The position numbers and the translations under genes are program-made. A stretch of DNA of 64,000 nucleotides, taken from contig CALXSE010000003.1 in the NCBI GenBank assembly GCA_944391085.1, positions 54,143 through 118,142 of the forward strand, read 5' to 3'. This DNA comes from an uncultured Kiritimatiellota bacterium (GTDB taxonomy: Bacteria > Verrucomicrobiota > Kiritimatiellia > RFP12 > DVOR01). Below the pieces are notes generated by a model. It was given only the letters and a program-made list of their open reading frames with translations, did not search any database and was not told the DNA's origin. Numbering within the stretch: position 1 is the first letter of the stretch; each line of letters starts with the position of its first letter. This document shows, piece by piece, positions 12,594-58,592 of this stretch.

Positions 12594-12618
12594 ACACTGA
12601 ACCGCAATCAGAAAACAC
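12594..12618 (+). promoter_or_regulatory. Recurrent motif copy A (CACACT-N5-CGCAAT-c-AGAAAACA), upstream of the first Fic gene
   Basis: catCACACTgaacCGCAATcAGAAAACAcgc. Related copies occur at 28293..28328, 58483..58512 and 58580..58592. Confidence 0.5.
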
Positions 12619-12633
12619 GCTTTTATCCCACTT

Positions 12634-12687
12634 CAACGCAATTTCCAAAAAATTGCGTTGAAATCCGCCCCGAGGTGTTGTATACTA
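12634..12687 (+). promoter_or_regulatory. Fic gene promoter with overlapping 27-bp palindromic operator
   Basis: CAACGCAATTT-ccaaa-AAATTGCGTTG (12634..12662) has perfect 11-bp arms. The right arm overlaps the -35 TTGAAA (12659-64). Seventeen nt on is the -10 TATACT (12682-87). SD and ATG follow at 12711. Confidence 0.55.
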
Positions 12688-12710
12688 GGCGGCGAAAGGA
12701 GGGCAAAGCG

Positions 12711-14045
12711 ATGCGCGCGGCGGTTGCGCCGGAACTCAACAACGCCGCCTTTCTGGCGTGGCTGGCAGGGCCGGGGGCGGCGACGCTCCCGGGGCTCTTG
12801 CGCACGGCCAAGGCCCAACGCGCCTACCTACCGTGGCGGAAGGCGCGTTACTCCGCGCCCGAAGGCCTCCCCGCCGAGGTCTGGTGGCCCATCCTCTGCC
12901 TGGCGCGCGACCTGCGCGTGGTGAATCCGGCGTTGGTCGGCGCGGGCGGGCAGCCCTTCCTGCTCTCGACGACGGACGAAATCCGGCGGTTGCTGCACGA
13001 AATCGACCGCAACGCGCCGGCGGCCATCCGCATGGACAGCGTGCGTGGGCGCGACGATGCCTCGGAACTGCGACGCACCTACCTCCAGCGCGAGCAGATG
13101 TTGGAGGCCATCTCCTCCAGCCAGATGGAGGGCGCCGCCACGACCCGCCAGGTGGCCCAGGAGCTGCTCCTGGCGAACCGCCCGCCCCAGAACGACGGTG
13201 AGCGGATGATCGCCAATAACTACGCCACCATCCGCGCGCTCGAGGGTTGGAGCAAGGAACCGCTCGCTGAAGGCCTCCTCTTCCGGATCCACCGCACGCT
13301 CACCGAAGGCCTCCTGCCCGAGGACGCCCAGGGCCGTTACCGGACGACGGACGACGTCCTCGTGCGCGACCGGGACGGCGAGGTCGTCCACCAACCCCCG
13401 CCGGCCGCGGCCCTGCCCGCGCGTATGGCCGCGCTGATGGCCTTCGCCAACCAAGGCGAGGCGGCGCAGGAGCCCTTCCTGCACCCCGTGCTCAAGGCCA
13501 TTCTCCTGCACACCCTCCTGGCCTACGAGCACCCCTTCCGCGACGGCAATGGCCGCACCGCCCGCGCCCTCTTCTACTGGAGCCTCCTGCGCGACGGCTA
13601 CTGGGTGGCCCCCTACGTCTCCATCTCGCGGATGTTGCGCCAAGAGCGAAAGGCCTACGACGAGGCCTACGTGGACATGGAATGCTGCCATCTCGACGCC
13701 ACCTACTGCGTCCTGGCGAACCTGCGCGTCTTCGCCCGCGGCCTACGCGACCTCAACGCCTACGTCGAGGGGCAGGCCCGGCAGACCGACGCCTGGCGCA
13801 AGGCCCTCCAAGGCCAATTCAACGCCCGCCAACTGGATTTGCTCGGCCACACCCTGCGCCACCCGAATTACCAATACACCGCCGCCGAGCACCAACGCTG
13901 GCACGACGTCTCGGCGAACACCGCCCGCGCCGACCTCGACGGCCTTGAGGCGCGCGGCTTCCTCCGGCGCCGCCAAATCGGGCGCGTGCGCTTCTACACC
14001 GCCACCGGCCTCTTCAAGGCCCTTGCCGAGCGGCCCGGGCCTTAG
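12711..14045 (+). CDS. Fic/DOC family protein (class II, internal inhibitory helix) with C-terminal winged-helix-like domain
   Basis: Fic motif HPFRDGNGRTARAL and inhibitory motif SSQMEGAATT, matching (S/T)xxxE(G/N). Start ATG at 12711 is preceded by GAAAGGAGGG. The upstream 145 codons of the track ORF are R/P-rich junk overlapping the neighbouring gene. Confidence 0.85.
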   Translation: MRAAVAPELNNAAFLAWLAGPGAATLPGLLRTAKAQRAYLPWRKARYSAPEGLPAEVWWPILCLARDLRVVNPALVGAGGQPFLLSTTDEIRRLLHEIDRNAPAAIRMDSVRGRDDASELRRTYLQREQMLEAISSSQMEGAATTRQVAQELLLANRPPQNDGERMIANNYATIRALEGWSKEPLAEGLLFRIHRTLTEGLLPEDAQGRYRTTDDVLVRDRDGEVVHQPPPAAALPARMAALMAFANQGEAAQEPFLHPVLKAILLHTLLAYEHPFRDGNGRTARALFYWSLLRDGYWVAPYVSISRMLRQERKAYDEAYVDMECCHLDATYCVLANLRVFARGLRDLNAYVEGQARQTDAWRKALQGQFNARQLDLLGHTLRHPNYQYTAAEHQRWHDVSANTARADLDGLEARGFLRRRQIGRVRFYTATGLFKALAERPGP

Positions 14046-15976
14046 CCGCCGAGGGCCTCGAGGGCGGTGGCGGCGGCCTCCCAGTCGAGGGTGAGCTTGG
14101 CGAGGTCGAATTGGATGGCGCGGAGGCGGCGGCCGGCGTCGGCGAGGCCCTGGGCGTCCAGCGAGCCGTCGCCGAGGGAGGCGGTGAGGGCGGCCTGCTC
14201 GGCCTCGAGCTTGGCGATGGCGGCCTCGGCCTCGGCGACGCGGCGGCGGAGGCGTTTGACCTCGGGGGCCTTGGCGGCGCGTTCCTGGGCGCGTTGGCGG
14301 CGGAGATCCTTGGAGGTGACCTTGGCCTCCTGGGGCCTGGCGGCGGGTTCGCCGGGGGGGGCCTCGCCGGCGATTTTCTCCTGGTAATAGTCGTAGCCGC
14401 CGTGGAAACGGCGGATGCCGCGGCGGGAGATTTCGAGGATGTTCTCGGCGGTGCCGCGGACGAATTCGACGTCGTGGGAGACGAGGACGACGGTGCCGTC
14501 GTAGTCGCGGACGGCCTGCTGGAGGCGCTCGCGGCCGTCGAGGTCGAGGTGGGTGGTGGGCTCGTCGAGGAGCAGGAGGTTGGGCGGGTTGAGGAAGAGG
14601 CGGAGGAAGGCCAGGCGGATCTTCTCGCCGCCGGAGAGGACTTTGACGGGCTTGGCGCAGTCCTCGGCATCGAAGCCGAAGCCGCCCAGGCGGTTGCGGA
14701 GCTCCTTTTCGGGGAGGGCGCCGGCGGCGGCCTTGGCGACGGCGAAGACGGTGGAATCCGGGTCCATGGTCTCGGCCAGATCCTGGCTTTGGTAGCCGGG
14801 GACGACGTGGTAGCCGAAGACGGCCTTGCCCTCGGTGGGCCTGCGGGCGCCGGCGAGGACGCGCAGGAGGGTGGTCTTGCCCATGCCGTTGTAGCCGACG
14901 ATGGCGATTTTGTCGCCGTTCATGACGCGCAGGTCAAGGCCGCTGAAGATGGGGCGCGCGCCGCCGGGATAGGTGTAGGCCGCGCCTTCGAGGCGGACGA
15001 TCTCGGCGCCGGCGTGGGGGGCCTTTGGCAGGCGGAGGGCGCCGGCGGCGCGGGAACGGGCGGGGAGGCGGATCTCCTCGAGCTTCTCGAGCTGCTTCTC
15101 GCGGCTTTGGGCCTGGGCGGCCTTGGTGGCCTGGGCGCGGAAGCGGTCGATGAAGCGCTGGAGCTGCTCGCGCTTGCGGTCTTGGTTGGCCTTGGCCTGG
15201 AGGAGCTGGCGGTAGCGCGTCTCGCGCTCGGCGAGGTAGGTGTCCAGCGGGGCGTTGTAGCGGGTGACGGCGCCGCCGTCGACCTCCACGGTGACCTTGG
15301 TGATGGCGCGCAGCAGGTAACGGTCGTGCGAGATGAGCGCGAGGGTGCCCTCAAAGCCGCGCAGGAAGCGCTGGAGCCACTCGATGGCCGGCAGGTCAAG
15401 GTAGTTGGAGGGCTCGTCGAGCAGGAGCAGCTCGGGCTTGGAGGCCAGCACGCGCGAGAGCTCGGCGCGCATCCGCCAGCCGCCGGAGAAGGCGGCGAAG
15501 GGGCGGTCGAAATCCTCCGTGGCGTAGCCCAGGCCGCCGAGGGATTCCTTGACGCGGGCCTCGAGGGTGTAGCCGCCCAGCTGCTCGAAGCGGGTGTTGG
15601 CCTCGCCCAGCGCGCGCAGGAGGCGCCCCTTGGCCGCCGGGTCGCGCTCGGTGGCGAGGGCCTCCTCCAGGCGCGCGATGTCGCGCTCGGTGCGCTCGAA
15701 GCCGGGGATGCCTTCCAGGCAATACTGCAGCAGCGTCTGCTCGGGCGAGTCTGGCTCCAAATGCTGGCGGACGAAACCGATGCGCGGGTTGCCTTCGTGG
15801 AGCACCTCGCCGGCGTCGGGCGAGAGGTCGCCGAGGATGAGCTTGAAGAGGGTGGATTTCCCCGATCCGTTCGGCCCCACGATGCCCACGCGCTCGCCCG
15901 CGTTGATCTTGAAGCTGGCGTGCTCGAACAAGGGCTCCGACCCATACCTGACGCTGACGTCCCGAAACTCAATCAT
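14042..15976 (-). CDS. ABC-F family ATPase (EttA/Uup-like, two ABC domains, no TMD)
   Basis: Two Walker A sites, GERVGIVGPNGSGKSTL and GDKIAIVGYNGMGKTTL, joined by a linker/coiled coil. Its stop is convergent with and overlaps the Fic stop by 4 nt. Confidence 0.85.
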   Translation of the reverse strand: MIEFRDVSVRYGSEPLFEHASFKINAGERVGIVGPNGSGKSTLFKLILGDLSPDAGEVLHEGNPRIGFVRQHLEPDSPEQTLLQYCLEGIPGFERTERDIARLEEALATERDPAAKGRLLRALGEANTRFEQLGGYTLEARVKESLGGLGYATEDFDRPFAAFSGGWRMRAELSRVLASKPELLLLDEPSNYLDLPAIEWLQRFLRGFEGTLALISHDRYLLRAITKVTVEVDGGAVTRYNAPLDTYLAERETRYRQLLQAKANQDRKREQLQRFIDRFRAQATKAAQAQSREKQLEKLEEIRLPARSRAAGALRLPKAPHAGAEIVRLEGAAYTYPGGARPIFSGLDLRVMNGDKIAIVGYNGMGKTTLLRVLAGARRPTEGKAVFGYHVVPGYQSQDLAETMDPDSTVFAVAKAAAGALPEKELRNRLGGFGFDAEDCAKPVKVLSGGEKIRLAFLRLFLNPPNLLLLDEPTTHLDLDGRERLQQAVRDYDGTVVLVSHDVEFVRGTAENILEISRRGIRRFHGGYDYYQEKIAGEAPPGEPAARPQEAKVTSKDLRRQRAQERAAKAPEVKRLRRRVAEAEAAIAKLEAEQAALTASLGDGSLDAQGLADAGRRLRAIQFDLAKLTLDWEAAATALEALGG

Positions 15977-16037
15977 GCGCGCATTATAGCAAAGGGGCGG
16001 CTGGGCCGCCCCCGGGAATACAGGCCCCGCGCCCCGC

Positions 16038-17498
16038 TCACCTCAGCCAGGAATAGAGGCAGAGGCAGACGATGGGCAGCAGGAAGAAGACGCAGACGAT
16101 GTAGGCCACGGCCATCGGGCGGCAGTCGCTGGCCAGCTTGGCGAGCGAGCTGGCGCACACCAGCGGCACGCGCCGCAGGGGCGGCAGGCCGTAGATGAGG
16201 ATGACGCCGCACGTGTTGAAGAGCAGGTGCACCAGCGCGATCTGCAGCCCGAAGGACGCCCCCTCCCCGGTGAAGGCCAGCGCCGCCAGCAGCGCCGTCA
16301 CGCACGTGCCGATGTTCGCCCCCAGCGTGAAGGGGAAGGCCTGCTTCAGCCGCATCAGCCCCGCGCCCGCCAGCGGCACGATGAGCGAGGTGGTGGTGCT
16401 GCTGCTCTGCACCAGCGCCGTGATGGCGAACCCGCTGCCGATGGCCGCCACCGGGTTCTTCCCCACCGCCGTGCGGAACACCTGCTCCGCGCGCCCCGTG
16501 AAGAGCATCCGCAGCAGCTGCCCCAGCAGCAGGATCGAACCGAAGATCAGGATCAGCCCGAAGACCACGTAGGCCGCGTTGGCCCACATCGCCCCGGGGA
16601 TCCGCAGGAACAGCCCGTACAGGAACGATTCCACCGGCGCCGTCGCCGCGGCCACGAAGTTGATCGCGTCCATGTTGAACCCGCCCGCCCCGTAAAGCGC
16701 GCCGGAAATCACCCCCGAGAGCCGCTCCAGCCAATGGAACGCCATCTCCGTGGGCAGGAAGAGGACGACGGCGGTGATGTTGAAGAAGTCGTGGATCGTC
16801 GCCGCCGCGAAGGCCCGGCGGAACTCGCGCCGGTGCCCGATGTGCCCCAGCGAGACAAGCGTGTTCGTCACCGACGTGCCGATGTTCGCCCCCATCACCA
16901 TCGGGATCGCCACATGGATCGGCAGCCCGCCCACGCACAGCCCCACAATCACCGACGTCGTCACCGAGCTGCTCTGGATGATCGCCGTCACCAGCAGCCC
17001 CGCCACCAGCCCCACGAACGGGTTCCCCGCGTACGTCTCGAAGAACGCCCGCGCGTGCGCCTCGCCCCCGAACAGCCCGTTGAAGCCCGCCCCCAGCGCC
17101 GCCATCGCCACCAGCAGCACGTACACCAGCGCCAGGCACGCCGCCCACGACGCCCACGGCCGCGCCGTCACCCACGAAAAAGCCCGCGCCAGCAGACCCT
17201 CCTGCTTCCTCGCGGGCTTTTGCTCGGACTTCCTGAGCGCGCCTCTCAACGTCTCCTCCAACGACTGCACCGCCGCCAACAGCCCCTCGCGCAGCCCGCC
17301 CCACGCCTCCTGGCGCGTGTTGTTCTCCGGCGAAACCACCAGGTTGATCAGCTCCGTCTCCAGCTTCGCGCGTTCGTCGACCAGCTTCTGGAGCGTCGCC
17401 CGTAGCGCCTCCGGCTCCTGGTTGGATTTCTTGAGGGCTTTGATCTCGTCGCGCAACTGCAACAGCCGGCTTTCGAGGGAGAGTTGTCGGTCGTCCAT
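16038..17498 (-). CDS. Na+/phosphate cotransporter family protein (NptA/PF02690-like) with N-terminal coiled-coil extension
   Basis: Duplicated QSSS(V/T)TTS(V/L)IV motifs and hydrophobic core typical of Na/Pi-cotransporter II-related proteins. SD AAGGA lies 8 nt upstream. Confidence 0.75.
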   Translation of the reverse strand: MDDRQLSLESRLLQLRDEIKALKKSNQEPEALRATLQKLVDERAKLETELINLVVSPENNTRQEAWGGLREGLLAAVQSLEETLRGALRKSEQKPARKQEGLLARAFSWVTARPWASWAACLALVYVLLVAMAALGAGFNGLFGGEAHARAFFETYAGNPFVGLVAGLLVTAIIQSSSVTTSVIVGLCVGGLPIHVAIPMVMGANIGTSVTNTLVSLGHIGHRREFRRAFAAATIHDFFNITAVVLFLPTEMAFHWLERLSGVISGALYGAGGFNMDAINFVAAATAPVESFLYGLFLRIPGAMWANAAYVVFGLILIFGSILLLGQLLRMLFTGRAEQVFRTAVGKNPVAAIGSGFAITALVQSSSTTTSLIVPLAGAGLMRLKQAFPFTLGANIGTCVTALLAALAFTGEGASFGLQIALVHLLFNTCGVILIYGLPPLRRVPLVCASSLAKLASDCRPMAVAYIVCVFFLLPIVCLCLYSWLR

Positions 17499-17616
17499 GG
17501 ATACATCCTTGCTTTGGAATTGCCCGATAAGATATCAGAAAAATGTTAGCGTTACGTTAGGATGTCAGGAAAAGATAAGAAAACCGTTAGCTCCCGCATC
17601 CGCCCGGGGAGGCCGG

Positions 17617-20033: not shown

Positions 20034-20046
20034 CGCCGTCCCCCCT

Positions 20047-20547
20047 TCAGCCGCGGCGCCCGTGGGCGTGGCGGTCGAGCACGCCGTTGACGAAGGCGCC
20101 GGATTCATCGTTGGCGAAGCGCTTGGCCAGCTCGACGGCCTCGTTGATGACCACCGGCGCGGGCGTGCCGAACCAGTCCATCTCGAAGCAGGCCTGGCGC
20201 AACACGCAGCGCTCGATCACGCCCAGGCGGTCAAGCTCCCAGTTCTCGCAGAGGGCCGAGAGGGTGGCGTCGATTTCCCCGAGGTGGCCGAGGGTGCCGC
20301 GCACGAGGTCCTCGGTGAAGGCCTTGAGCTCGGCGGTGGCGAGGCGCTCCTCGGGGGGGAGGAGGGCCTCGATGGCGTCCATGTCATTGTCCTCTTTGCC
20401 CCTGGCCTCCTGGCGGCAGCTCCACTGCTGCTCCCAGAAATGCGCGAGGATGAGGTTCACGTCGGCGAAGGGGTTGAGGTCGGCCTGCACGATCATCTGC
20501 AGGGCCCATTCGCGGCCTTTGCGGCGCGTTCTGGCGGGTGCGTCCAT
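20047..20547 (-). CDS. nusB: Transcription antitermination factor NusB
   Basis: RRKGREWALQMIVQADL... is a typical NusB fold sequence. It lies immediately downstream of ribH, which is the conserved arrangement. Confidence 0.85.
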   Translation of the reverse strand: MDAPARTRRKGREWALQMIVQADLNPFADVNLILAHFWEQQWSCRQEARGKEDNDMDAIEALLPPEERLATAELKAFTEDLVRGTLGHLGEIDATLSALCENWELDRLGVIERCVLRQACFEMDWFGTPAPVVINEAVELAKRFANDESGAFVNGVLDRHAHGRRG

Positions 20548-27866: not shown

Positions 27867-27957
<91 letters not shown>

Positions 27958-28292
27958 GGAAAAACGCCTCATAGTATGCCATAATCCGCCCCCTCCGCGC
28001 AAGCAAAACTTTCACGCCGGCGGCCAAAGGGAAAGGAACCTCGAGCGGACAGAGGATTATTCCACCCGTTGGGCGCCCAAGACCGGCAAGGCTTCCAAAG
28101 GGAGAGGGCCCAGACGGTCGTCGTCACGTCCCCGCGATATCGTACTCATATATGGCGCGGTCGATGAGGCGCCACGCGCCATCCTCGCGGAGCACAAGGC
28201 CAAGGGGCACGCCGTGCGCTGGCAAATCGCATAACCCGCTTCCCAATTGTTATACCCTATCCGCGGGAATGTCCAGCAAAAACGGACTTGTC

Positions 28293-28328
28293 CACACTGT
28301 AATTGCGCAATCGCAGGAAAGAAGAAAC
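28293..28328 (+). promoter_or_regulatory. Recurrent motif copy B, 160 nt upstream of the serine recombinase gene; contains perfect palindrome ATTGCGCAAT
   Basis: gtcCACACTgtaattGCGCAATcgcAGgAAAgAagaaac. Confidence 0.5.
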
Positions 28329-28488
28329 GAAGAAGAAAAGGGCGCACCAAGGAAACGAAAACAGCGCCGGCCTCACAACGCCTGGGAGCAACGCCACCAC
28401 CGCCTCCTGACACCTGCCATCCCAACTCCCCAAACGCATCCCCCGCCCGCCATCCGCTCCCCCCGCACCCCGAAAGGCCCCCCGACCC

Positions 28489-29076
28489 ATGACTTACGGC
28501 TACATCCGCGTCTCCACCGACAAACAGACCGTCGAGAACCAACGCTTCGAAATCAAGCGCTTCTGCGCCAGCCAGGGCCTCCGCGTCGACAAGTGGATCG
28601 AGGAGACCGTCTCCGGCACCAAGCCCTGGTCCCGCCGCCGCCTGGGCAAGCTCCTGCGCCACGCCCACGGCGGCGACCTCCTGCTCTGCTCCGAGCTGTC
28701 ACGCCTGGGCCGCTCGCTCTTCATGATCCTGGAGGTGCTCAACCACTGCCTCCAGCGCGACATCCGCGTCTGGACCGTCAAGGACAACTACCGCCTGGGC
28801 GACGACATCCCTAGCAAGGTCCTCGCCTTCGCCCTGGGCATCTCCGCCGAGATCGAACGCAACCTGATCTCCCAGCGCACCCGCGAGGCCCTCGCCCGCC
28901 GCCGCGCCGAAGGCCTCCCCCTCGGCCGGCCGCAGGGCACCCGCACGCGGCGCCTTGCCCCCCACCGCGACACCATCCGCCGCCTCCTCGCCCAAGGCAC
29001 CCCAAAGACCCGCATCGCCCGCCGCCTCCGCGTCAACGTCGAGACCCTCCGCCGCTTCCTCAAACTGGAGCCCTAG
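28489..29076 (+). CDS. Serine recombinase (resolvase/DNA invertase family, Hin/Gin/Tn3-res-like) with C-terminal HTH
   Basis: MTYGYIRVSTDKQTVENQRFEIKRF... carries the catalytic Ser-containing YxRVSTxxQ motif. At 195 aa with a C-terminal basic HTH (TRIARRLRVNVETLRRFL) it is typical of small serine recombinases. Confidence 0.85.
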   Translation: MTYGYIRVSTDKQTVENQRFEIKRFCASQGLRVDKWIEETVSGTKPWSRRRLGKLLRHAHGGDLLLCSELSRLGRSLFMILEVLNHCLQRDIRVWTVKDNYRLGDDIPSKVLAFALGISAEIERNLISQRTREALARRRAEGLPLGRPQGTRTRRLAPHRDTIRRLLAQGTPKTRIARRLRVNVETLRRFLKLEP

Positions 29077-45825: not shown

Positions 45826-45922
45826 CCCGAGATCCTTTCAGAAGACAATCCCCGTCAGTATACCACAATCCACGAAAAAGCCCCGGGCGAACCCGGGGCC
45901 CTTTGGGGCGCAGGGCGCCCGC

Positions 45923-46537
45923 TCAGGCCGCGCGGCGGCGAAGCGCCACCCCAGCCACGCCCAGCGCCAGGAGCGCCAGCGCCGTCGGCTCGGGCAGAAC
46001 CGCCGTCTCGTTCGCCGTCAGCCAGCCGATCTGCTCGGTGGTGAGGTTGCCGGAATAGGCGGCGGAACCGACGATGTCCCACGCGTCGTTGTCGTACAGC
46101 CACACGTTCAGGCCGCTCTTGTTGCCGCCTTCGTCGAACGAGGCGTAGAGATCGCCGTCGACGTAGATGTTCACGGTGATCTCGCTCGTTGAGACGGGCT
46201 CATAGTTGATGGCGATGGTGTGGATGCCGGTGCCAAGCGTCGGGCGATCGGCACTGGGCGACCAATTGCCGGCCTGATAACGGAGCGAGCCGTCCGTGTT
46301 CAGCTTCAGGAAGGCGTCGCCGTTCCAGTAGCCGAACTTGACGAGATCCGTGCCGTCCGCCGACACCGCCTGCGTCACGTCGACGGTCACGACGTAGGCG
46401 AAGGGGTTGGTGTAGCCCGTGCCGGAGATGATGCCCTTGTTATCGTAGGCGCCGCTCTCCTGCCAGGTCAGCGTCACCGCGTGCGCGGCGGAGAGGGCCA
46501 GTGCGGCGAAGGCCGCCGCCAGGACTGTTCTTTTCAT
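45923..46537 (-). CDS. PEP-CTERM sorting-domain surface protein (paralog of 11800..12447)
   Basis: Signal peptide MKRTVLAAAFAALALSAAHA; C-terminal LPEPTALALLALGVAGVALRRRAA is identical to the paralog. Real start at 46537. The track ORF has a 72-codon junk extension. Confidence 0.8.
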   Translation of the reverse strand: MKRTVLAAAFAALALSAAHAVTLTWQESGAYDNKGIISGTGYTNPFAYVVTVDVTQAVSADGTDLVKFGYWNGDAFLKLNTDGSLRYQAGNWSPSADRPTLGTGIHTIAINYEPVSTSEITVNIYVDGDLYASFDEGGNKSGLNVWLYDNDAWDIVGSAAYSGNLTTEQIGWLTANETAVLPEPTALALLALGVAGVALRRRAA

Positions 46538-49620: not shown

Positions 49621-50382
49621 TCAGTTGGGCACCGCGGTGACGAGGGTGTCCTTGTATTCCACCATGTAGAGCACGTCTCCGCCCATGCGGGTGCGGAAGA
49701 AGAACTGGAGGGGGACGCCGTCGCTGTCGAAGGGCTCGTCGTTGTAGAGGAGGACCTTGGTGGGGTCGCCGGTGGGGTCGCCGTACTGGTCGCAACGGAT
49801 CTCGCGCCCGGCGTAGAGCATGAAGAAGCCCTCGTCCTCGGCCTCGTCGTCCCACGTCAGCTTGGTGCCCTGCACCAGGAAGGGGCCGGGGCCCACGATG
49901 ACGCCGCGCGCGCCGCTGTTCACCAGCTCGGTCACGTCCGTCAGGGTCGGCAGGGTCGGCAGATCCACGCGCCGCACGCCGCTGCCGGAGGCCGCCGTGC
50001 GCAGGCGCGCCCCGACGGTGGCGTTGACGACGAGCCTGTTCTTGCTCGGGTCCCACGCCGCGTCCTCCGCCGCGAAGGTGCCGCGCACCGCCGGGGCGAA
50101 CTTCACCAGCCCGCTGATGTTCACCGCCCGGCCCGCGGAGACCAGCTCCGCCACCAGGTCGGCGAATTCGCCGAGCACCAGGCGGATCGTGCTCTCCTTC
50201 ACCGCGCAGCCTTCCCTGACCATCTGGCGCGCCACGTCCTGCAGGCCATAGGTCTCCTTCACCTCCACGCGCCCCACGAAGGTCTCGGCGCCGGCCTTCT
50301 CGGTGGCCAGCTCGTTGCGCACCAGCCGGTAGTTCACGCTCTTGAGGTCTCCCTCCGAATTGATCACGATGTCCGTGTCCAT
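49621..50382 (-). CDS. HU-like DNA-binding domain protein with DUF4469-like C-terminal domain (tentative)
   Basis: Real start MDTDIVINSEG at 50382 with SD GAAAGGAAC. The N-terminal stretch ESTIRLVLGEFADLVAELVSAGRAVNISGLVKF matches the HU/IHF-like fold. The 47 codons upstream in the track lie inside the 172-bp direct repeat and are identical to the spurious ORF at 54702..58553. Confidence 0.55.
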   Translation of the reverse strand: MDTDIVINSEGDLKSVNYRLVRNELATEKAGAETFVGRVEVKETYGLQDVARQMVREGCAVKESTIRLVLGEFADLVAELVSAGRAVNISGLVKFAPAVRGTFAAEDAAWDPSKNRLVVNATVGARLRTAASGSGVRRVDLPTLPTLTDVTELVNSGARGVIVGPGPFLVQGTKLTWDDEAEDEGFFMLYAGREIRCDQYGDPTGDPTKVLLYNDEPFDSDGVPLQFFFRTRMGGDVLYMVEYKDTLVTAVPN

Positions 50383-50398
50383 GTCCGTGTTCCTTTCA

Positions 50399-50570
50399 CG
50401 CGGCCCCCTTTCCCGCCCCGGGCAACCCGCCCGGCGGCGCCGCACGCCGGGGGCCGCCCCACGTGCGCACCCTCCGCGCACCCCTGACAGGCCGCGCGGG
50501 GAAAACCGCGCAACCCCTTCCAAGCCAACGCCTCCGGGATACTGACACCCCTGACGCGCCCCCTGACGCC
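50399..50570. repeat. 172-bp direct repeat, copy 1 (identical to 58216..58387)
   Basis: CGCGGCCCCCTTTCCCGCCCCGGGCAACCCGCCCGGCGGCGCCGCACGCCGGGGGCCGCCCCACGTGCGCACCCTCCGCGCACCCCTGACAGGCCGCGCGGGGAAAACCGCGCAACCCCTTCCAAGCCAACGCCTCCGGGATACTGACACCCCTGACGCGCCCCCTGACGCC is found identically at both sites by visual alignment. Identical spurious ORF translations in the track confirm the match. Confidence 0.9.
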
Positions 50571-50604
50571 GCGCCGCCCCCTAGGGGGCGCCCCCTCCGG
50601 GGGG

Positions 50605-50643
50605 CAGGAGGACGGGCTACGCCCCTCCTCCTGTTTTGGTTTG
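50605..50643 (+). terminator. Intrinsic-terminator-like hairpin plus T-tract on the plus strand just after repeat copy 1
   Basis: CAGGAGGACGGGC tac GCCCCTCCTCCTG (13-bp stem, 1 mismatch) followed by TTTTGGTTTG. It is preceded by the perfect 14-bp palindrome AGGGGGCGCCCCCT at 50583-50596. Confidence 0.5.
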
Positions 50644-51038
50644 CTCAAGGTCCGTCCATCTTTCCTCTTTCTTCGCTTCGGTCCTACAAGTGCGCAATTA
50701 CATTGTGGACGATTCAGCTTGACAGGGAGGGAACAAGTCTTGTAGCATTGGGGCAGATGGCGCGGGGCGTGCGCTTCGTCGGTTGGCGTTGGGCATGCTT
50801 TTCGGGGCCGGAGCTGATGCGTTTGCGCGTACGTTCGTTTCAGAGGGAACCATGGCCTTTCCAAGCCTGGGCGAAATGTGTCGCGGAGGCGCGCCCAAGG
50901 GGTGCTCCTTGGGGGTGTTTTCTCGCGTTGTGTTTCCAAGCGCGGTTGTGGGTCCTCTGAAGGACTTTGGGGGGAGCCTCACTGGTTGTTGTCTCTCCGT
51001 TTCGTCGTTGGTGTGAAAACAGGGATTGGAGAACGGTC

Positions 51039-54000
51039 ATGAAGCGGTTTGTCTTTTGGATTTGGGCGCTGTGTGCGGCGGCGCCGGGGTTTGCCGATCA
51101 GGTAACCATTGATGGGGTCACGTGGACGTACAGCGTCCGCTCCAGGGAAGGGGCGTCGTATGCGGTGATTGAGGAGGCCAGCGGGGTGCAGGGCGCGGTA
51201 ACCGTGCCGGCAACGCTGGGCGGGGCGCCGGTCACGGAGCTTGAAACCGGATTTTTCGGTATGAGCGGCGTCTTCTACGGATGCACCGACCTGACGGAGG
51301 TCCGCTGGGAGGAGGGGTGCGCGATCGAGAAGATCGGGGGGTATGCTTTCAGGGGGTGCACAAGCCTGACCCAGATCACGATCCCGCCTTCGGTGACGAA
51401 ACTGGGGAACCAGGCCTTCAGAGGGTCGGGGCTGGAGACCGTCACGATTCCGGGCACGGTGAAGACGCTGGGCGCAGAGGTCTTCGCGGAGTGCCCCGAC
51501 CTGAAGACGGCTGTCTTTGAGGAGGGGGAGCTGATAGGGGATAGTACGAGCTCTGTTGATTGGACGAATCTTTTCAGGAAATGTCCGGAGCTGGAGTCGG
51601 TGACGGTGAAACGATTGCCGTACATCAAGGAGGGGATGTTTGCCGATTGTCCGAAGTTGACCTCGGTGTCGTTGCCGGTGACGGTGTCTGAGATCATGGG
51701 AATGGCGTTTTCCCGGAGCCCGAATATCACCTTCACGCTCGATGCCGGGGTGACGAGATTCTCTGTCGAAAACGGAATGCTGCGCTCCGCGACGGGACTC
51801 TATTATGTGCCGGGGGACCCCGAACGACTGGAAATCCCGGACGGGATTACCGATATTCTCGGCGGCATCTGCCGGGGGATGACGAACCTGCGCGAGGTGA
51901 CCGTGCCCGACACGCTGAAATCCATCGGCACGTATGCTTTCTACGGGTGTGCGTCGCTGGAGGAGATCGATCTTTCGGGAACGCAGGTGGCGGCACTGAC
52001 GGAGAGCGCCTTTGCGAATTGCCCCGCGCTGGCATGGGTGCGCCTGCCGGCGACCGTCACGTCGTTCGAGATCGGCAAGACCTTCGACGGTTCGCCGAAT
52101 GTGCGCTTTGAGGTGGCGGAGGGGAGCAAAACCTTTGCCTCGGACGAACAGCACGCGCTTTACAGCAAGGATATGACGATCCTTTTCCTCGGCCCCAATG
52201 CGGCATCCTTCACGGTGCCTGAGACGGTGACGGCTATCGCCCCTTATGCCTTCGACGGCCGCGCCGCGCTGACGTCCATCACCATTCCGGCGAGCGTCAG
52301 AGACTTCGGGTATGATGTCTTCCGCGGGTGCACGAATCTGGCGTCGGCGAACGGGCTCTGGCTTGATGCGGAGCAGACGACCGTGCTCGGGATTGACGCG
52401 GGAGAGACCGCGGTCGCCGCGGAAGATTTCCCGGAGACCGTCTGGCGCGTGGCCGATTACGCCTTTTATGAAAACACGTCTCTGAGCTCTGTTGTCTTCC
52501 CCCAAAAAGTAACCTCCATCGGGGCTTCCGCTTTTTACTATTGCGGCAATCTGGGGAGCGTGACCTTCGCCGAGGGACTTGAGGAGATTCGGGACGGGGC
52601 CTTTTACGGTACCGGCATCGGCGGGGAGCTCAATTTGCCCGCCACGCTGATGCACCTCGGGGATCGGGCGTTCGGCTGGACGTTTATAACAGAGGTGAAG
52701 ATGGGCGGCGAGCCGGGGCTGCGCGATGACCCGAATCTGACGCTCGCGGGAAACCCTTTTTCCGAGTGCGAGTGCCTGCCTGTGGATCCCGAGACATGCA
52801 TCATGTATGAGACTGCCGTCGCGAACGGTCCCCGCGTGGTTGTCGGCGTCGGTGAATATCATGACGAGACCACCGGCTACACGCACTATAATGTCCGGGT
52901 GTCGGATCTTGTCTTTCCGGAGAGCGTTCGCTACATCCTCAGTGGGCTTGACATCAGTGATAGCCCGAGAACCATCACGACCACGGGGCCAATCTACAGC
53001 GTTGGGAGCGCCGCCTTCATAAGTCCGACTGCCAAGGTGCACACCATCACCTTCGGCGGCAATGTGGGCGTGGTGGAATCGAAGGCCTTCTATGAGCTTC
53101 CGTATCTGCAGGTGCTGACTTTCAAAGGAAAAGTCGGTACCATCCGCAGCAATGTCCTCTGGGGGACCCCTCGCAGTCTGACGGAGGAAGGCAGCCTTTC
53201 GATAACCTTTGAAGGGGACGTCGGCACGATTGAGGCAGGCGCCTTCGACGCCACTACCAGCCAGGAATCCAACGTGTACGGATGGTCCCCTTTAAAGGAG
53301 CATCTCACCTCGGTGACCTTCGGCGGAACGATCGGCACTATCGGAGAGGATGCCTTTCGCGGGTGCTCCTCACTGAAGACCCTTGCCGGATGCAAGCCGG
53401 CGAACCTTGGCGCAAGAGCTTTTTACAATTGTCAGGCGCTGACGGAGGCTCCGGACCTGAGCCTTCTGAGCGAGGTGCCGCAGGGCGCTCTGCTGAACTG
53501 CTTGAACATAAAAGCGGTCGACGCCGGTGCGGCGACGGTCATCGGACCCTCAGCTTTTCAGGGATGCGTGTCGCTCGTCTCGGTGAACGCCCCGATGGCG
53601 GCGACGGTGGGAAAGAGCGCCTTCAAGATGCTGCCCAAGAGCGGCGGCGGTTGGGCTACGGCCCTGACGGAGGTGACGCTGGCCGAGACCGTCACGCTCG
53701 GCGCGGAGGCCTTCAGCGGATGTGCCGAGCTGACGGGACTGAAGACCGCTTCCGGCGGTGAGCCGGTGGTGACGTTGGCGACGTCCGTCTTCGGCGGATG
53801 CGCCAAGCTCACCGGTGTCACGCTTAATCCGGCCACGACGGAGATCCCAAGTGGCGCTTTTTCCGGATGCGCGGCCATGACCGCCTTCCCCTGGCCGGCC
53901 AATATCAGAATCATCGGAGGTTCCGCCTTCAGCCGCACCGGCCTTACGGGAGAGCTGAACCTGCCCGCCACGGTGGAGAAGGTCGACTACTATGCCTTTG

Positions 54001-57000
54001 ACGGGTGCAAGGGTCTGACCAAGATTACGCTTAATTCCGCGCCGGAGCTGCTCACGCCCTTCTCCGGGTGCTCCGGCGTCACGGAGGTCGTCTATACGTG
54101 CGATGTGCCGGAGCTTCCGCGGGTGTGGGACGGCCTCACAGGCCTGACTTCCTTCACGGTGAACGGCGATATCGGCACGTCGGCGAATTTTGCGCTCTCG
54201 GATTGCGACAGCCTGGAGACGATGACGGTGAAGGGCAATTGGGGGACCGTCGCGGCCGGAACCTTCTATGACCTTAGCAAGTTCACGACGCTGACCGTCA
54301 CGGGCACCGTCGGCGCCGTCGGCGACTCGGCCTTTATGGGGTGTACGGCGCTGACTTCGGTGCCAACAATCGGCGATGCGTCCCTTGAGGGGGCCATCGG
54401 CAACTCTGCCTTCCAAGACTGCTCGAGCCTGGAATCCGTCACGCTCGACCGCGACATCCGCGCCATCGGCAACTACGCCTTCCGTGACTGCACAGGCCTC
54501 AAGACCGTCTCGATCTTGGGCGATCTCCGCACGATTGGCACCTATGCCTTTTCGGGCTGCACGGCGCTGAACAATCTGACGCTGCCGACCTCGCTGGTCT
54601 CCATCGGCGACTACGCCTTCCAGAACTGCAACGCGCTCCCAAAAGACGCTGACTACATCTACACCTCGGCAGACAAGACGGTTATTCTGAGCCGGGTTTC
54701 GTCATCGCCCAAGCTGACCACGCTCAGCATCCCCGAGGGCGTCACCATGATCGGCCCCAGCGCGTTCGCCTCGGAATACAATCTGACGTCGCTGACGTTG
54801 CCTTCGACCCTGAAGGCCATCGCCAACAGGGCCTTCTATAATTGCAACAAGCTTACGAAGGTCACCATCCCGGCCGGTGTCGTGACCATCGGCGACTATG
54901 CCTTCCAGAGCTGTTCCAAGCTTGCGACGGTGACCTTTGAGCCGGAGAGCCAGCTGGCAACGATGGGCAAGGGAGCCTTTTCCAGTTGCAGTGCGCTCAC
55001 GGGCTTCGCCTTCCAGCCCGGGGTGACGGCCATCGCCGACAGCCTCCTGAGCGGATGCGGCAAGCTGGCGGCGGTGACCTATGAGCCGGGCTTTGCGCCG
55101 GAGTCGATCGGGGCAAGCGCCTTCAGCGGCTGCACGGCGCTCTCCGCGCTGCCTATCCCCGAAAGCGTGACCGTCATCGGCGACTATGCCTTCCAGAACT
55201 GCGACGATTTGACGGAGATGGGCATCCCGGAATTGGTCACGGCCATCCCGGACAACTGCTTCAACAACTGTGACGGCCTCACCGCCGTGACCTTCGGGGC
55301 GCAGGTCACGTCCATCGGAGCCTCCGCCTTCTATGGATGCGCCAAGCTGACCACGCTGCCGGCGGCGGATGCCGATGGCATCGTCATCCCGGAGACGGTG
55401 ACCACCCTCGGCGAAGAGGCCTTTTATAATTGCAAGGCCGTGACGAAGGTTACCTTGCCGGATGTCATCACCGAGATTCCCGAGTCGCTCTTCTATAGGT
55501 GTGCCGCGCTGGACACGGTCAAGCTGGGTTCGACCGTGACAAAGATCGGCGCCTCCGCCTTCCGGAACTGCACGGCGCTGGAAAGCATCGAACTGCCCGA
55601 CACGCTGACCACCTTGGGATCGTCGGCCTTCAGCGACAGCGGACTGACCTCCGTGACCCTGCCGGACGGACTGACGAAGCTGTCCTATTACGGGTTCTCC
55701 GGGTGCAAACGGCTCGCTTCGGTGACGCTGAGCCCGGATACCGTCGCCCTCGACACGGGGACCTTCTACGGGTGTACGGCTCTCACGGCCATCACCCTGC
55801 CCGCGGGGGTCACGGAGATCCCTCAGGCCGCCTTCATGAACTGCACCGCGCTGGAGACCGTCACGCTGGAGGGAGTGTTGACCAAGATCGGCTATCAGGC
55901 TTTCAGCGGTTGCCCATCGCTCCGCTTCGCGATTCCCGAGACGGTTGTCGCCATCGGCGGACAGGCCTTCAAAGGGTGCGCGGCCCTTACGGAGATCAGC
56001 ATCCCGGAGGGCGTCACGGAGCTGGCGGCGAATGTCTTCCAAGATTGCGGCGGCCTGACGGAAGTCACCATCCCGGCCACCGTCGGGAAGTTCAACGCGA
56101 GCGCCTTCGCGGGGTGCGACAGCCTCACGACGGTGACGCTCGGCGGATCGCCCACCGCCGTGCCGAATGCGATGTTCGACGGCTGCACGGCGCTGACCAC
56201 CATCCGTCTGCCGGACTCCGTCACCACCATCGGCGACTCCGCCTTCCGGAACTGCACGGCGCTCACCTCCATCGATATTCCCCCCCGCGTGACCAAGATC
56301 GGGACCTACGCCTTCCAAAAGTCCGGCCTGACCTCTGTCGTCGTGCCCGACACGGTGACCTCGCTGGGGACCTATACCTTCCAGGGCTGCGCGGCGCTGA
56401 CCTCGGCCACCGTCGGCGAGGGCGTCGCCACGATCGGCAACTACACCTTCGGCGACTGCACGGCGCTCACGAAGGTGACGCTGCCGGCCGACCTGAAGGA
56501 GATCGGAAGATCCGCCTTCTACGGATGCACGGTGCTCACGGCCATTGACATTCCCTCCGGCGTGACCAAGGTCGGGAGCAACGCGTTTGAAAAGTCCGGT
56601 CTGATCGCCGCCGTCCTGCCCGACACCGTGACCTCGCTGGGAACCTATGCCTTCCAGAACTGCACGTCGCTGACTTCGGTGGATGTCGGCGCGAGGCTTA
56701 CGAAGCTCGACACCCGCACTTTCTACGGATGCACGGCGCTCGCGGAGGTGACGCTGCCGGCCGGCCTGAAGGAGTTCGGGAGCAGCGCGTTCCAGAACTG
56801 CACGGCGCTTGATGCCATCACAATCCCCGAGGACGTAACCAAAATCGGGAGCAGCGCGTTCCAGGACTGCACGGCGCTCTCGGAAGTGACGCTGCCGGCC
56901 GGTCTGGAGGAGATCGGGAGCAGCGCGTTCCAGAACTGCACGGCGCTCTCGGCCATCATAATCCCCGAGGGTGTGACCACCATCGGAAACTACGCCTTCA

Positions 57001-58181
57001 AGAACACCGGCCTGACGTCCGTCTCGGTGCCCGGCTCGGTGACCTCGCTGGGGACGTATGTCTTCCAGAATTGCACGGCGCTGACCTCGGCCGCCTTCGG
57101 CGAGGGCATCAACGCGATCCCCAATTACACGTTTTACGGATGCACGGCGCTCTCGAAGGTGACGCTGCCGGCGACGCTGACGGAAATCGGCGCTAACGCC
57201 TTCAACGGATGCACGGCGCTCACGGCCGTCACAATCCCCTCCGGCGTGACCAAGATCGGGAATTACGCCTTCCTGAAGTGCGGCCTGACGTCCGTCTTGG
57301 TGCCCGGGTCGGTGACCTCGCTGGGGATGTACGTCTTTCAGAATTGCACGGCGCTGACCTCGGCCACGCTCGGGGAAGGGATCACGGTCATCCCGAGCAG
57401 TACCTTCTACGGGTGCACGGAGCTGGCGGCCGTCACGTTGCCGGACAGCGTGACCACCGTCAATTCCAACGCCTTCGGGAACTGCAGGAAACTGGTCTCG
57501 CTCACCATCCGGGGCGATGTGCCCACTTCGGTGAACAGCTACGCCTTCCCCACGGGGAATTATCTGGCCGAAGGCGCCACGCTTTATTACCCGGCCGCGC
57601 AGGAAGCGGCGTGGAAGGCGGCGGCCGACGCGGACGGCAAATGGAAGGGCTTCACACTGGCCGTGCTCGCGGCCGTGGCCATGCCCAACGTCCCCGACGG
57701 CGCGGCAGGTTACACCGACATGGCCGTGCTCGAACGCCTTCAGGCCGCCGCCTTGGAGGCCGGCATCACCGACGGCACGTTCGACGTCTTCCGCCAGAAC
57801 AGCGACGGCACCGTGGTTCGGGAACTCCTCGCTCCGGCGACCGTGGAGGATGCGCTGAACTGCTTTGCCGGTCTTGAGCCGGTGGCGGTCACGCTTGAGG
57901 ACGGGACGGCCATGGTGGTCCTGCCCTATACCTTCGACGTCTGCGGCATCTCCGTCGAGGCGTCGGAGGTCGTCGTCACGGTCAAGGTCGAAAGCGGCCT
58001 TCCCGAGATGCCCCTGACCTTCGCCGAGGGCATCGCCTATGCCATTGTGCCCACCACGGAGGGCACCGCGCCCGTCGTCACCGTGCGGGAAGTGGCCGGC
58101 GACACCGCCACGCTGGCGTTCACCCCGCCGGAGGGACACTCCACCTACCTCTTCAAGGCGTCGGTTTCGCCTCTTCGGTAA
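51039..58181 (+). CDS. Giant (2380 aa) secreted BspA-type leucine-rich-repeat surface protein
   Basis: Signal peptide MKRFVFWIWALCAAAPGFA. It has dozens of about 22-aa BspA-like LRR units (IPxSVTxIGxxAFxxCxxLTSVTLP), with higher-order near-identical repeats of about 88 aa (264 bp) in the C-terminal half, and a non-repeat C-terminal domain. SD GGAGAA precedes the ATG at 51039. The track ORF starts 24 codons earlier. Confidence 0.85.
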   Translation: MKRFVFWIWALCAAAPGFADQVTIDGVTWTYSVRSREGASYAVIEEASGVQGAVTVPATLGGAPVTELETGFFGMSGVFYGCTDLTEVRWEEGCAIEKIGGYAFRGCTSLTQITIPPSVTKLGNQAFRGSGLETVTIPGTVKTLGAEVFAECPDLKTAVFEEGELIGDSTSSVDWTNLFRKCPELESVTVKRLPYIKEGMFADCPKLTSVSLPVTVSEIMGMAFSRSPNITFTLDAGVTRFSVENGMLRSATGLYYVPGDPERLEIPDGITDILGGICRGMTNLREVTVPDTLKSIGTYAFYGCASLEEIDLSGTQVAALTESAFANCPALAWVRLPATVTSFEIGKTFDGSPNVRFEVAEGSKTFASDEQHALYSKDMTILFLGPNAASFTVPETVTAIAPYAFDGRAALTSITIPASVRDFGYDVFRGCTNLASANGLWLDAEQTTVLGIDAGETAVAAEDFPETVWRVADYAFYENTSLSSVVFPQKVTSIGASAFYYCGNLGSVTFAEGLEEIRDGAFYGTGIGGELNLPATLMHLGDRAFGWTFITEVKMGGEPGLRDDPNLTLAGNPFSECECLPVDPETCIMYETAVANGPRVVVGVGEYHDETTGYTHYNVRVSDLVFPESVRYILSGLDISDSPRTITTTGPIYSVGSAAFISPTAKVHTITFGGNVGVVESKAFYELPYLQVLTFKGKVGTIRSNVLWGTPRSLTEEGSLSITFEGDVGTIEAGAFDATTSQESNVYGWSPLKEHLTSVTFGGTIGTIGEDAFRGCSSLKTLAGCKPANLGARAFYNCQALTEAPDLSLLSEVPQGALLNCLNIKAVDAGAATVIGPSAFQGCVSLVSVNAPMAATVGKSAFKMLPKSGGGWATALTEVTLAETVTLGAEAFSGCAELTGLKTASGGEPVVTLATSVFGGCAKLTGVTLNPATTEIPSGAFSGCAAMTAFPWPANIRIIGGSAFSRTGLTGELNLPATVEKVDYYAFDGCKGLTKITLNSAPELLTPFSGCSGVTEVVYTCDVPELPRVWDGLTGLTSFTVNGDIGTSANFALSDCDSLETMTVKGNWGTVAAGTFYDLSKFTTLTVTGTVGAVGDSAFMGCTALTSVPTIGDASLEGAIGNSAFQDCSSLESVTLDRDIRAIGNYAFRDCTGLKTVSILGDLRTIGTYAFSGCTALNNLTLPTSLVSIGDYAFQNCNALPKDADYIYTSADKTVILSRVSSSPKLTTLSIPEGVTMIGPSAFASEYNLTSLTLPSTLKAIANRAFYNCNKLTKVTIPAGVVTIGDYAFQSCSKLATVTFEPESQLATMGKGAFSSCSALTGFAFQPGVTAIADSLLSGCGKLAAVTYEPGFAPESIGASAFSGCTALSALPIPESVTVIGDYAFQNCDDLTEMGIPELVTAIPDNCFNNCDGLTAVTFGAQVTSIGASAFYGCAKLTTLPAADADGIVIPETVTTLGEEAFYNCKAVTKVTLPDVITEIPESLFYRCAALDTVKLGSTVTKIGASAFRNCTALESIELPDTLTTLGSSAFSDSGLTSVTLPDGLTKLSYYGFSGCKRLASVTLSPDTVALDTGTFYGCTALTAITLPAGVTEIPQAAFMNCTALETVTLEGVLTKIGYQAFSGCPSLRFAIPETVVAIGGQAFKGCAALTEISIPEGVTELAANVFQDCGGLTEVTIPATVGKFNASAFAGCDSLTTVTLGGSPTAVPNAMFDGCTALTTIRLPDSVTTIGDSAFRNCTALTSIDIPPRVTKIGTYAFQKSGLTSVVVPDTVTSLGTYTFQGCAALTSATVGEGVATIGNYTFGDCTALTKVTLPADLKEIGRSAFYGCTVLTAIDIPSGVTKVGSNAFEKSGLIAAVLPDTVTSLGTYAFQNCTSLTSVDVGARLTKLDTRTFYGCTALAEVTLPAGLKEFGSSAFQNCTALDAITIPEDVTKIGSSAFQDCTALSEVTLPAGLEEIGSSAFQNCTALSAIIIPEGVTTIGNYAFKNTGLTSVSVPGSVTSLGTYVFQNCTALTSAAFGEGINAIPNYTFYGCTALSKVTLPATLTEIGANAFNGCTALTAVTIPSGVTKIGNYAFLKCGLTSVLVPGSVTSLGMYVFQNCTALTSATLGEGITVIPSSTFYGCTELAAVTLPDSVTTVNSNAFGNCRKLVSLTIRGDVPTSVNSYAFPTGNYLAEGATLYYPAAQEAAWKAAADADGKWKGFTLAVLAAVAMPNVPDGAAGYTDMAVLERLQAAALEAGITDGTFDVFRQNSDGTVVRELLAPATVEDALNCFAGLEPVAVTLEDGTAMVVLPYTFDVCGISVEASEVVVTVKVESGLPEMPLTFAEGIAYAIVPTTEGTAPVVTVREVAGDTATLAFTPPEGHSTYLFKASVSPLR

Positions 58182-58215
58182 ATCAATGCCGAACCCGCGC
58201 TCCTGGAATCCGGAG

Positions 58216-58387
58216 CGCGGCCCCCTTTCCCGCCCCGGGCAACCCGCCCGGCGGCGCCGCACGCCGGGGGCCGCCCCACGTGCGCACCCTCCGCGCACCC
58301 CTGACAGGCCGCGCGGGGAAAACCGCGCAACCCCTTCCAAGCCAACGCCTCCGGGATACTGACACCCCTGACGCGCCCCCTGACGCC
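58216..58387. repeat. 172-bp direct repeat, copy 2 (identical to 50399..50570)
   Basis: Begins 35 nt after the LRR gene stop. The 3' arm of a hairpin (CCGCGCTCC-tggaatcc-GGAGCGCGG, 58195..58220) overlaps the repeat start. Confidence 0.9.
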
Positions 58388-58482
58388 CCCCACCCCGCCG
58401 CAACCCTTTTTCCGCCAAAACCCGCCTTTCCCCAGACACCCCCCAACAAAATGTAACGATAGCGCAATGAAATCCGCCAAAA

Positions 58483-58592
58483 GTGTGACAATAACGCAAT
58501 ATCCAGAAAACAAGCCTTGAGCCCAACAACGCCAAGCACTCCGGCCCCCCCATAACGCAATGGAATTGCCAAAAAGTGTCACACTAGCGCAA
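58483..58592 (+). promoter_or_regulatory. Recurrent motif copies C' and C upstream of the second Fic gene
   Basis: C' (58483-58512) reads gtgtGACAaTaaCGCAATatccAGAAAACAagc. C (58580-58592) reads gtgtCACACTaGCGCAAcacag. Between them lie GAAATCCGCC (shared with the first Fic gene's upstream region) and GGAATTGCC (revcomp of GCAATTCC there). Confidence 0.5.

Follow-up and report, generated by a model that had tools for sequence, protein, structure and literature searches.

Short words shared by two Fic loci and a dispersed repeat beside an Mpi-family invertase gene in a Kiritimatiellota genome

In the genome of an uncultured Kiritimatiellota bacterium, a stretch of 64,000 nucleotides (contig CALXSE010000003.1), here called the window, contains two genes coding for Fic proteins, Fic1 (12711-14045) and Fic2 (58906-60414), and one coding for a serine recombinase (28489-29076); upstream of each of them, similar short words recur in non-coding DNA. 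A first-pass annotation had assembled these words into a single motif of about 30 bp, occurring four times in the same orientation (sites A, B, C′ and C), and had proposed that it links three otherwise unrelated genes, either by a shared DNA-binding regulator, or by a common mobile-element origin, or as recombination sites of the serine recombinase. The locus thus raises the question of whether one element really stands in front of these three genes. The observation is partly real, but the unifying interpretation is not upheld: the feature is of an ordinary kind, with some unusual surroundings, and the “30-bp motif” combines fragments of two elements that are not related to each other, the arrays of a half-site found at the Fic genes and a dispersed repeat. 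The reading preferred here is that Fic1 has an auto-operator composed of CGCAAT half-sites, that a related array lies at the Fic2 locus, and that a separate dispersed repeat is found by the recombinase gene, which codes for an invertase; we assign to it a probability of about 55%.

The composite motif and its parts

Several elements of the initial description hold. Pfam and other domain hits identify Fic1, the 195-aa recombinase (Resolvase and HTH_7) and Fic2 at the positions given above, and the blocks holding the words are non-coding and have a GC content of 55–62% (0.59, 0.62 and 0.55-0.62), compared with about 70% for the window. The words themselves are present within 1 nt of where they had been placed: CACACT at 12593, 28293 and 58580, with GACAAT at 58486; CGCAAT, within the composite copies, at 12603, 28306 and 58495; AGAAAACA at 12610 and 58505; GAAATCCGCC at 12660 and 58469; and GGAATTGC at 17516 and 58562, its complement being found at 12583.

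Their assembly in one motif is a different matter. Smith-Waterman alignments, evaluated against dinucleotide shuffles, are at chance level for A-B (z=1.2) and for B-C on the plus strand (z=−1.1); for A-C on the plus strand z is about 2.2-4.2 depending on the gap scoring, a value reached by 0-1 of 300 shuffles in the two stricter schemes and by 6-10 of 300 in the two laxer ones. When profile hidden Markov models were built from any three of the sites and run with nhmmer on the 64-kb window, the omitted fourth site was never among the top 8-9 matches listed, and a pattern of the A/C′ composite, searched in 185,579 GTDB species genomes, gave beyond-chance matches only at A and C′ themselves. A single motif of about 30 bp common to A, B, C′ and C thus fails the leave-one-out test, and the similarity is lost under a statistical motif model, the very outcome that the first-pass annotation had named as speaking against it. 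Also the uniform orientation disappears once a fifth, inverted copy (50631-50710) is counted, and the genes are not all unrelated, since Fic1 and Fic2 are adjacent in related species. CACACT and GACAAT were considered as -10 hexamers of tandem promoters and discarded: their distance from -35-like hexamers is not constant (14-18 nt, but only 5 nt in A), and no promoter emerged from the scan of C.

CGCAAT alone among the component words is enriched, neither CACACT nor AGAAAACA being individually significant. In the four regions A, B, C and E, the last being the region of the fifth copy, CGCAAT or ATTGCG occurs 10 times against 1.3 expected (Poisson 1e-6); it is the most over-represented hexamer, and the best hexamer was as extreme in 0 of 200 shuffled sets. 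Markov expectations were calculated for each k-mer, the raw k-mer maxima against shuffles being dominated by C-runs. A scan of the 64-kb window did not identify CGCAAT as a generic promoter word: it is not present in most of the approximately 10 readable promoter regions, it clusters only in A and C, and single copies are found in B, E and the L35 upstream region. This word is the only robust part of the composite and resembles the half-site that a repressor would bind at the promoters of the Fic genes, while its occurrence within site B is probably coincidental. For genome scanning in general, the case suggests caution, as short AT-containing words are conspicuous in a genome of 70% GC and can be stitched into a motif that fails cross-validation.

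A candidate operator at Fic1 and the array at Fic2

Fic1 is preceded by a sigma-70-type promoter on the plus strand, TTGAAA-17-TATACT (12658-12686; 10/12 matches, 0.0 expected), which is followed by the ribosome-binding site GAAAGGAG. Its -35 hexamer (12658-12663) is entered by the right arm of a palindrome, TTCAACGCAATTT-ccaaa-AAATTGCGTTGAA (12632-12662), with 13-nt arms that are 100% complementary; the pattern GCAATT-N5-9-AATTGC is unique in the window and was found 0 times in 100 shuffles. Upstream of the palindrome two distal CGCAAT half-sites, A0 (12582-12587) and A1 (12603-12608), are located on the plus strand 21 nt apart, A1 being contained in the original site A (12593-12618).

The sequences upstream of Fic1 orthologs, from relatives having about 50% GC and a Fic1 identity of 72-75%, are collinear with region A. 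In an alignment of four distinct sequences TTC..yGCAATTTy....rAATTGCrTTGAAA, TATACTA and the ribosome-binding site are invariant, whereas the spacer between -35 and -10 and the original site A (CACACTGAACCGCAATCAGAAAACA) diverge; A0 is kept as GCAAT(T), and no conservation is seen in the CACACT..AGAAAACA sequences around A1. In one of the relatives (L079) the module with the putative operator is present twice, in tandem. In a more distant ortholog, 57% identical and lying in a different genomic context, the corresponding sequence is TGTCAATTT-ttag-AAATTGACA-17-TATATT, the architecture being kept and the word changed; another one, 50% identical and also in a different context, is preceded by three direct copies of ACTGTCAA and by the palindrome CTGTCAA..TTGACAG-17-TACACT. 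The half-site of these two orthologs is GTCAAT. When viral contigs were scanned with the Fic1 operator pattern, one match was obtained, in an AT-rich phage upstream of a non-Fic gene, and was taken as chance. The palindrome is a candidate Fic1 operator: the dyad abuts the -35, it is conserved in orthologs amid diverging bases, and a DNA-binding domain is encoded at the locus.

This domain belongs to Fic1 itself. The protein (444 aa, plus strand; Pfam Fic 6.8e-18) has at its C-terminus, at about residues 370-432, a winged helix-turn-helix (wHTH), which is confident in the AlphaFold 2 model (H-H-H-beta-beta; predicted local distance difference test, pLDDT, 86.6 for the model), and a weak HTH_DeoR match is found at residues 399-421. 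The best fold matches of the model are those of SoFic, 3ZCN/3EQX, the latter deposited with the title “Fic domain containing transcriptional regulator”. The half-site differs from one lineage of the neighboring Fic gene to another, which suggests that this gene itself encodes the binder, and from this co-variation, together with the C-terminal winged helix, we infer that Fic1 auto-represses its own gene through the palindrome. In the proposed mechanism CGCAAT, or its extended form GCAATT, would be the half-site of a DNA-binding protein, and a dimer of this protein on GCAATTT-N5-AAATTGC, which together with three direct half-sites occupies the strong sigma-70-type -35 and the DNA before it, would block RNA polymerase; the direct half-sites upstream would add cooperative binding. 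The protein would most likely be Fic1, acting by its C-terminal winged helix, and it may plausibly act also at region C, which appears to be a diverged relative of the Fic1 regulatory region heading the variable array that includes Fic2.

Similarly to auto-repressed enzyme-repressor fusions and toxin modules, such as BirA and Phd/Doc, Fic1 has a candidate palindromic operator overlapping its own -35, and it shares with this class an operator sequence that changes together with the gene across lineages; the Doc protein of the Phd/Doc operon is itself a Fic-fold protein. The order of a Fic core followed by a winged helix is that of the SoFic-type Fic proteins (3EQX/3ZCN). Unlike Phd/Doc-type modules, the locus has no separate antitoxin gene, and it comprises extra direct half-site arrays and a second array, region C, far from any mapped promoter. 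We know of no demonstration of DNA binding by SoFic-type wHTH Fic proteins.

Region C (58397-58631, plus strand) includes both C′ (58483-58512) and C (58580-58592) of the first-pass annotation. It contains CGCAA(T/C) half-sites at 58463, 58495, 58556 and 58587, with spacings of 32, 61 and 31 nt, is organized as two tandem units of about 93 nt forming an internal repeat, and has a quasi-palindrome, GCAAT-gg-AATTGC, at 58557-58569. Its similarity to A is weak and collinear, and a part of it resembles a degenerate Fic1 promoter unit (GAAATCCGCC...GTGT...hexamer). Region C keeps its position, at the left extremity of the array, in every variant of the cassette described below, and in one strain half-site C0 was lost by a 62-nt deletion between two copies of TCCGCCAAAA, that is by microhomology.

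Downstream of region C is the Fic2 promoter module (58690-58905, plus strand), of the form TTGTCG(58828)-AATTGC...-TGgTAAATT(58851-58856); the promoter is TTGTCG-17-TAAATT with an extended TG (58828-58856), and in five sequences of Fic2-type promoters the GAATTGC next to the -35 is unchanged. The module is orthologous to the regions upstream of the Fic2 orthologs and to a module beside mpi, the invertase gene, in another locus (L025, 5675-5890), from a species with an 89%-identical Mpi, where it is 80% identical over 164 nt and faces a gene for a 187-aa EcsC-like protein. The Fic2 module also contains four copies of a GTAA(G/C)T word with a T-run (58742-58749, 58770-58777, 58790-58797 and 58895-58903), of which relatives keep CGTAAGT..TTTT; these repeats may constitute a separate binding array.

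Fic2 (502 aa, plus strand) is 82.5% identical to the second Fic gene of a locus that in relatives (L074, L076 and L079) has the order CstA-Fic1-small membrane protein (144-151 aa)-Fic2, with the two Fic genes adjacent to each other. In the window genome Fic1 and Fic2 are 46 kb apart and the small membrane-protein gene is missing. Since the two genes were ancestrally linked, shared regulatory words are unsurprising, and the idea of a shared DNA-binding regulator can be kept for the two Fic loci, on the basis of the CGCAAT/GCAATT half-site and of the Fic1 -35 palindrome conserved in orthologs, but not for the 30-bp string. A small open reading frame rich in Pro/Leu/Ala repeats lies downstream of Fic2 (60527-60634), and its called length ranges from 35 to 167 aa across strains.

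A dispersed repeat beside the invertase gene

Site B (28293-28328) has a different nature. It corresponds to the end motif, read on the opposite strand, of a repeat of about 150 nt, of which the window contains two copies: copy B on the minus strand (28285-28398; nhmmer 5e-20) and copy E on the plus strand (50568-50715; 5.9e-46), the left end of the latter being the left boundary of a 7.6-kb cassette. The match between them, which the first-pass annotation had missed, pairs 28290-28364 with 50710-50631 on the opposite strand with z=13, and the homology covers about 115-150 nt. All copies have the same layout, comprising in order the palindrome GCCCCCTAGGGGGC, a hairpin and then TGTTTTGGTTTG, a CT-rich stretch and the end motif GTGCGCAATTACATTGTGGACGATT; past the end motif the homology stops (..GTGGACGATT) and a different sigma-70-like promoter comes next in each copy. 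Directly after copy E this is the promoter TTGACA-18-TAGCAT (50719-50748, plus strand) of a gene for a giant repeat protein, while the minus strand of copy B contains a terminator-like hairpin and TGGACA-18-AACAAT.

A metagenome scan with the shared core identified four further true copies, all in OOCM01 contigs, located upstream of a GT4 glycosyltransferase, a GH2 hydrolase, a SIR2-HerA pair and a GATase/LpxK/MurJ cluster; viral contigs scanned with the same core gave 0 matches, and in the Rfam scan at gathering thresholds a tRNA was the sole match. Six distinct and sharply bounded copies are thus found at unrelated loci, two in the window genome and four in OOCM01. Judged on its sequence, site B is a copy of a dispersed intergenic repeat, unrelated to the Fic half-site arrays. 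The family, which is a new one, resembles REP/BIME, ERIC, RUP and MITE-like repeats, as it is about 150 nt long, intergenic, multi-copy and sharply bounded, with GC-rich hairpins. Unlike those repeats, it has no visible terminal inverted repeats or target-site duplication and always takes one orientation just upstream of a promoter; moreover, the boundary of a mobile cassette falls at one of its copies.

Copy B is contained in a segment of about 480 bp (28008-28488) that is absent from a sister species and also holds a strain indel of 130 bp (28037-28166). In that species, whose Mpi is 92% identical, tRNA-Ser is only about 65 bp from the mpi start codon, so that the 480 bp are an insertion in the lineage of the window. 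A common mobile-element origin therefore suits site B, as a copy of a dispersed repeat within an insertion. The tRNA-Ser(GGA) (27867-27957, minus strand), between DUF362 and the recombinase gene, has its own promoter, TTGCGC-18-CATACT, which is kept in the sister species; site B was thus rejected as the tRNA-Ser promoter, also because the sister species is without it. Contigs from seven assemblies stop inside this tRNA (27872-27915). A resemblance to a high-GC DnaA box is seen in B (TTGTCCACA) and in E (TCGTCCACA), and the dnaA gene is located about 12 kb outside the window; this assignment was likewise rejected, as A and C have no such word and the word is a part of the end motif.

The recombinase is an Mpi-family master DNA invertase (28489-29076, plus strand), matching the NCBIfam equivalog NF009949 with 291.6 bits against a cut-off of 272. 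Homologs 65-70% identical, named Mpi, are found in Bacteroidales and Kiritimatiellia, and this degree of identity to the Bacteroidales enzymes suggests a cross-phylum transfer in the gut. The enzyme is similar to Bacteroides fragilis Mpi in its equivalog-level match and in its chromosomal location between housekeeping genes; the window, unlike the B. fragilis system, has no identified inverted-repeat promoter segments, its motif copies are not inverted pairs around promoters, and the assemblies show no inversion. The search for promoter segments flanked by inverted repeats, which found none in the window, was swamped by GC-rich chance pairs when run window-wide. The Bacteroides Mpi repeat core, which we take to be ARACGTWCGT, has no exact match in the window and 14 one-mismatch matches against 5.6 expected, mostly in coding sequence and none in the motif, and no conclusion is drawn from these.

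The idea that the motif copies are recombination sites of this enzyme is not sustained by the arrangement of related genomes. About 60 same-species loci or contigs contain no inverted or deleted junction at any motif copy, although these are consensus assemblies that represent the majority arrangement only; neither the 22-kb inversion between B and E nor deletions between A, B and C were found in same-species contigs, in assemblies that are insensitive to minority forms, and the one apparent gap consists of scaffold Ns. An inverted partner of the end motif is not found within 900 nt of any copy, so the repeat is not an inverton repeat; the two members of the sole inverted pair, B and E, are separated by 22 kb, and many strains have no copy E. 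The structural variants that do exist have their breakpoints in a 172-nt direct repeat, in a microhomology of 10 nt or in other places, and none within a CGCAAT site or an end motif.

The variable cassette and the alternatives

The 172-nt perfect direct repeat (left copy 50399-50570, in the 5′ region of gene X; right copy 58216-58387; both on the plus strand) bounds a strain-variable cassette of 7.6 kb (50571-58215, plus strand), which includes copy E and a gene of lower GC content coding for a leucine-rich-repeat-like protein of 2,400 aa (50967-58181). Gene X, which produces an HU-HIG/HU-DNA_bdg protein (49621-50382, minus strand), is the fixed left neighbor of the variable interval. The cassette is present in the window and in L012, L018 and L086, and absent from L011, L014-17 and L020; the near-identical strains devoid of it keep a single copy of the 172-nt repeat, a pattern that a circle containing the repeat could produce by Campbell-type integration or excision. 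The whole interval between HU-HIG and fabH (50383-60731; also in L069, L088, L090 and L091) is hypervariable. Out of at least three alternative genes, near-identical strains have up to two there: some have none, others Fic2, others an AAA_14/DUF4143 ATPase gene (insertion point 58631/58645), alone or with Fic2, and others Fic2 together with the giant gene. As in integron-like arrays or defence islets at fixed hotspots, alternative genes come and go; unlike integrons, the interval has no integron integrase or attC-type sites, no integrase being found near the hotspot, and one insertion is flanked by the 172-nt perfect duplication. The 50%-identical Fic1 ortholog mentioned above (L107, 1-838) adjoins an AAA_14/DUF4143 gene of the same family as the hotspot cassette.

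The GTDB relative of the window genome is the uncultured Kiritimatiellota metagenome-assembled genome BRZ_QD__bin101 (CALXMW01), with an identity of about 94%, and several gut-type metagenomes hold contigs near-identical to the window. The Fic1 block (12016-14115) and region C with Fic2 (58397-60575) are about 98.5-99.4% identical to the GTDB representative (L061 and L069), with flanks at 85-94%, and the region of repeat E (50560-51078) is about 99% identical to L086, a contig averaging 97% overall. Accessory blocks 99% identical within flanks of 85-97% indicate a recent transfer between lineages. Elsewhere in the window, two paralogous genes of opposite orientation have PEP-CTERM tails that form an 87-nt inverted repeat with 85% identity (12376-12462 and 45908-45994).

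Some of these findings weigh against an auto-operator at Fic1 with a related array at Fic2. The spacing of half-sites varies among sites (N0, N2-3, N5 and N9), which is unusual for one dimeric protein, and the A-C homology is weak and dependent on gap scoring, being attained by shuffles when gaps are lax. No counterpart of region C was found upstream of Fic2 in the relatives, and region C lies 240-400 bp upstream of the Fic2-type promoter, beyond simple repression. As the Fic1 block is about 99% identical between the two lineages compared, the 100% identity of region A over 145 nt within the species is uninformative; the scans for degenerate copies covered 64 kb and the fetched loci. The binder could also be an unlinked regulator or the HU-HIG protein adjoining region C. 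As B and E each carry CGCAAT beside a promoter, a single wider regulon is conceivable: one regulator would read GCAAT(T) at A, B, C, E and the Fic2 promoter, co-regulating Fic1, the cassette array, the giant surface protein and the invertase. The presence in all four regions of the top over-represented hexamer, the location of GCAATT/AATTGC within about 30 nt of the -35 in A, E and the Fic2 promoter, and the perfect palindrome ATTGCGCAAT in B agree with this view; however, the word in B and E belongs to a repeat that elsewhere precedes housekeeping or unrelated genes (LpxK/MurJ, GH2 and SIR2-HerA), the half-site layout and spacing differ between sites, E having one half-site, and models built on A and C miss B and E. 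We therefore hold such a regulon to be quite improbable. Somewhat less doubtful, but still unlikely, is that regulatory DNA, once duplicated, was carried along with horizontally exchanged accessory genes and is now decaying, the shared words being what is left of it and the Fic1 palindrome the only functional one. The weak A-C alignment, with C similar to a degenerate tandem copy of the Fic1 promoter unit, the recently transferred blocks and the loss of C0 in one strain would be expected from such decay, whereas the C half-site spacings, which are near whole helical turns, and the retention of C at the array head in every variant with any cassette point to a function of region C.

A role of the motif copies as crossover sites of the invertase, with direct copies giving excision and the inverted B and E a 22-kb inversion, has very little probability. 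Serine-invertase sites have a 2-bp center, while that of the Fic1 palindrome is 5 nt; in addition to the absence of inverted or deleted junctions at a motif in about 60 same-species loci and of an inverted partner within 900 nt, the 172-nt repeat, and not the motif, forms the borders of the cassette, and excision between A, B and C would remove 16-46 kb of housekeeping genes. On the other side, a copy of the repeat lies 165-200 bp upstream of the invertase gene, B and E are mutually inverted, the homology among the repeat copies stops sharply at the motif, and the neighborhood of E is structurally variable; also, in Bacteroides the master invertase works at distant sites (PMC4747536, PMC5903667). 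The copy by the invertase gene, the exact coincidence of the other copy with the left cassette boundary and the end of homology at GCGCAATTACATTGTGGAC prompted a further proposal, namely that the Mpi-family invertase drives a shuffling of cassettes and that the B/E repeat serves it as recognition or crossover element. This proposal is highly speculative; if true, a master invertase of Kiritimatiellota would move or flip whole promoter-gene cassettes, instead of short promoters.

The auto-operator at Fic1, if it is true, would offer a testable case of a Fic AMPylase doubling as a transcriptional repressor, a role hinted at by the wHTH of the SoFic-type proteins, and the half-sites co-varying across orthologs would provide ready specificity pairs for experiments. 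Three by-products of the analysis are perhaps of more interest than the motif itself: the presence of an Mpi-type master invertase in Kiritimatiellota, the new dispersed repeat and the hypervariable cassette hotspot beside the HU-HIG gene.

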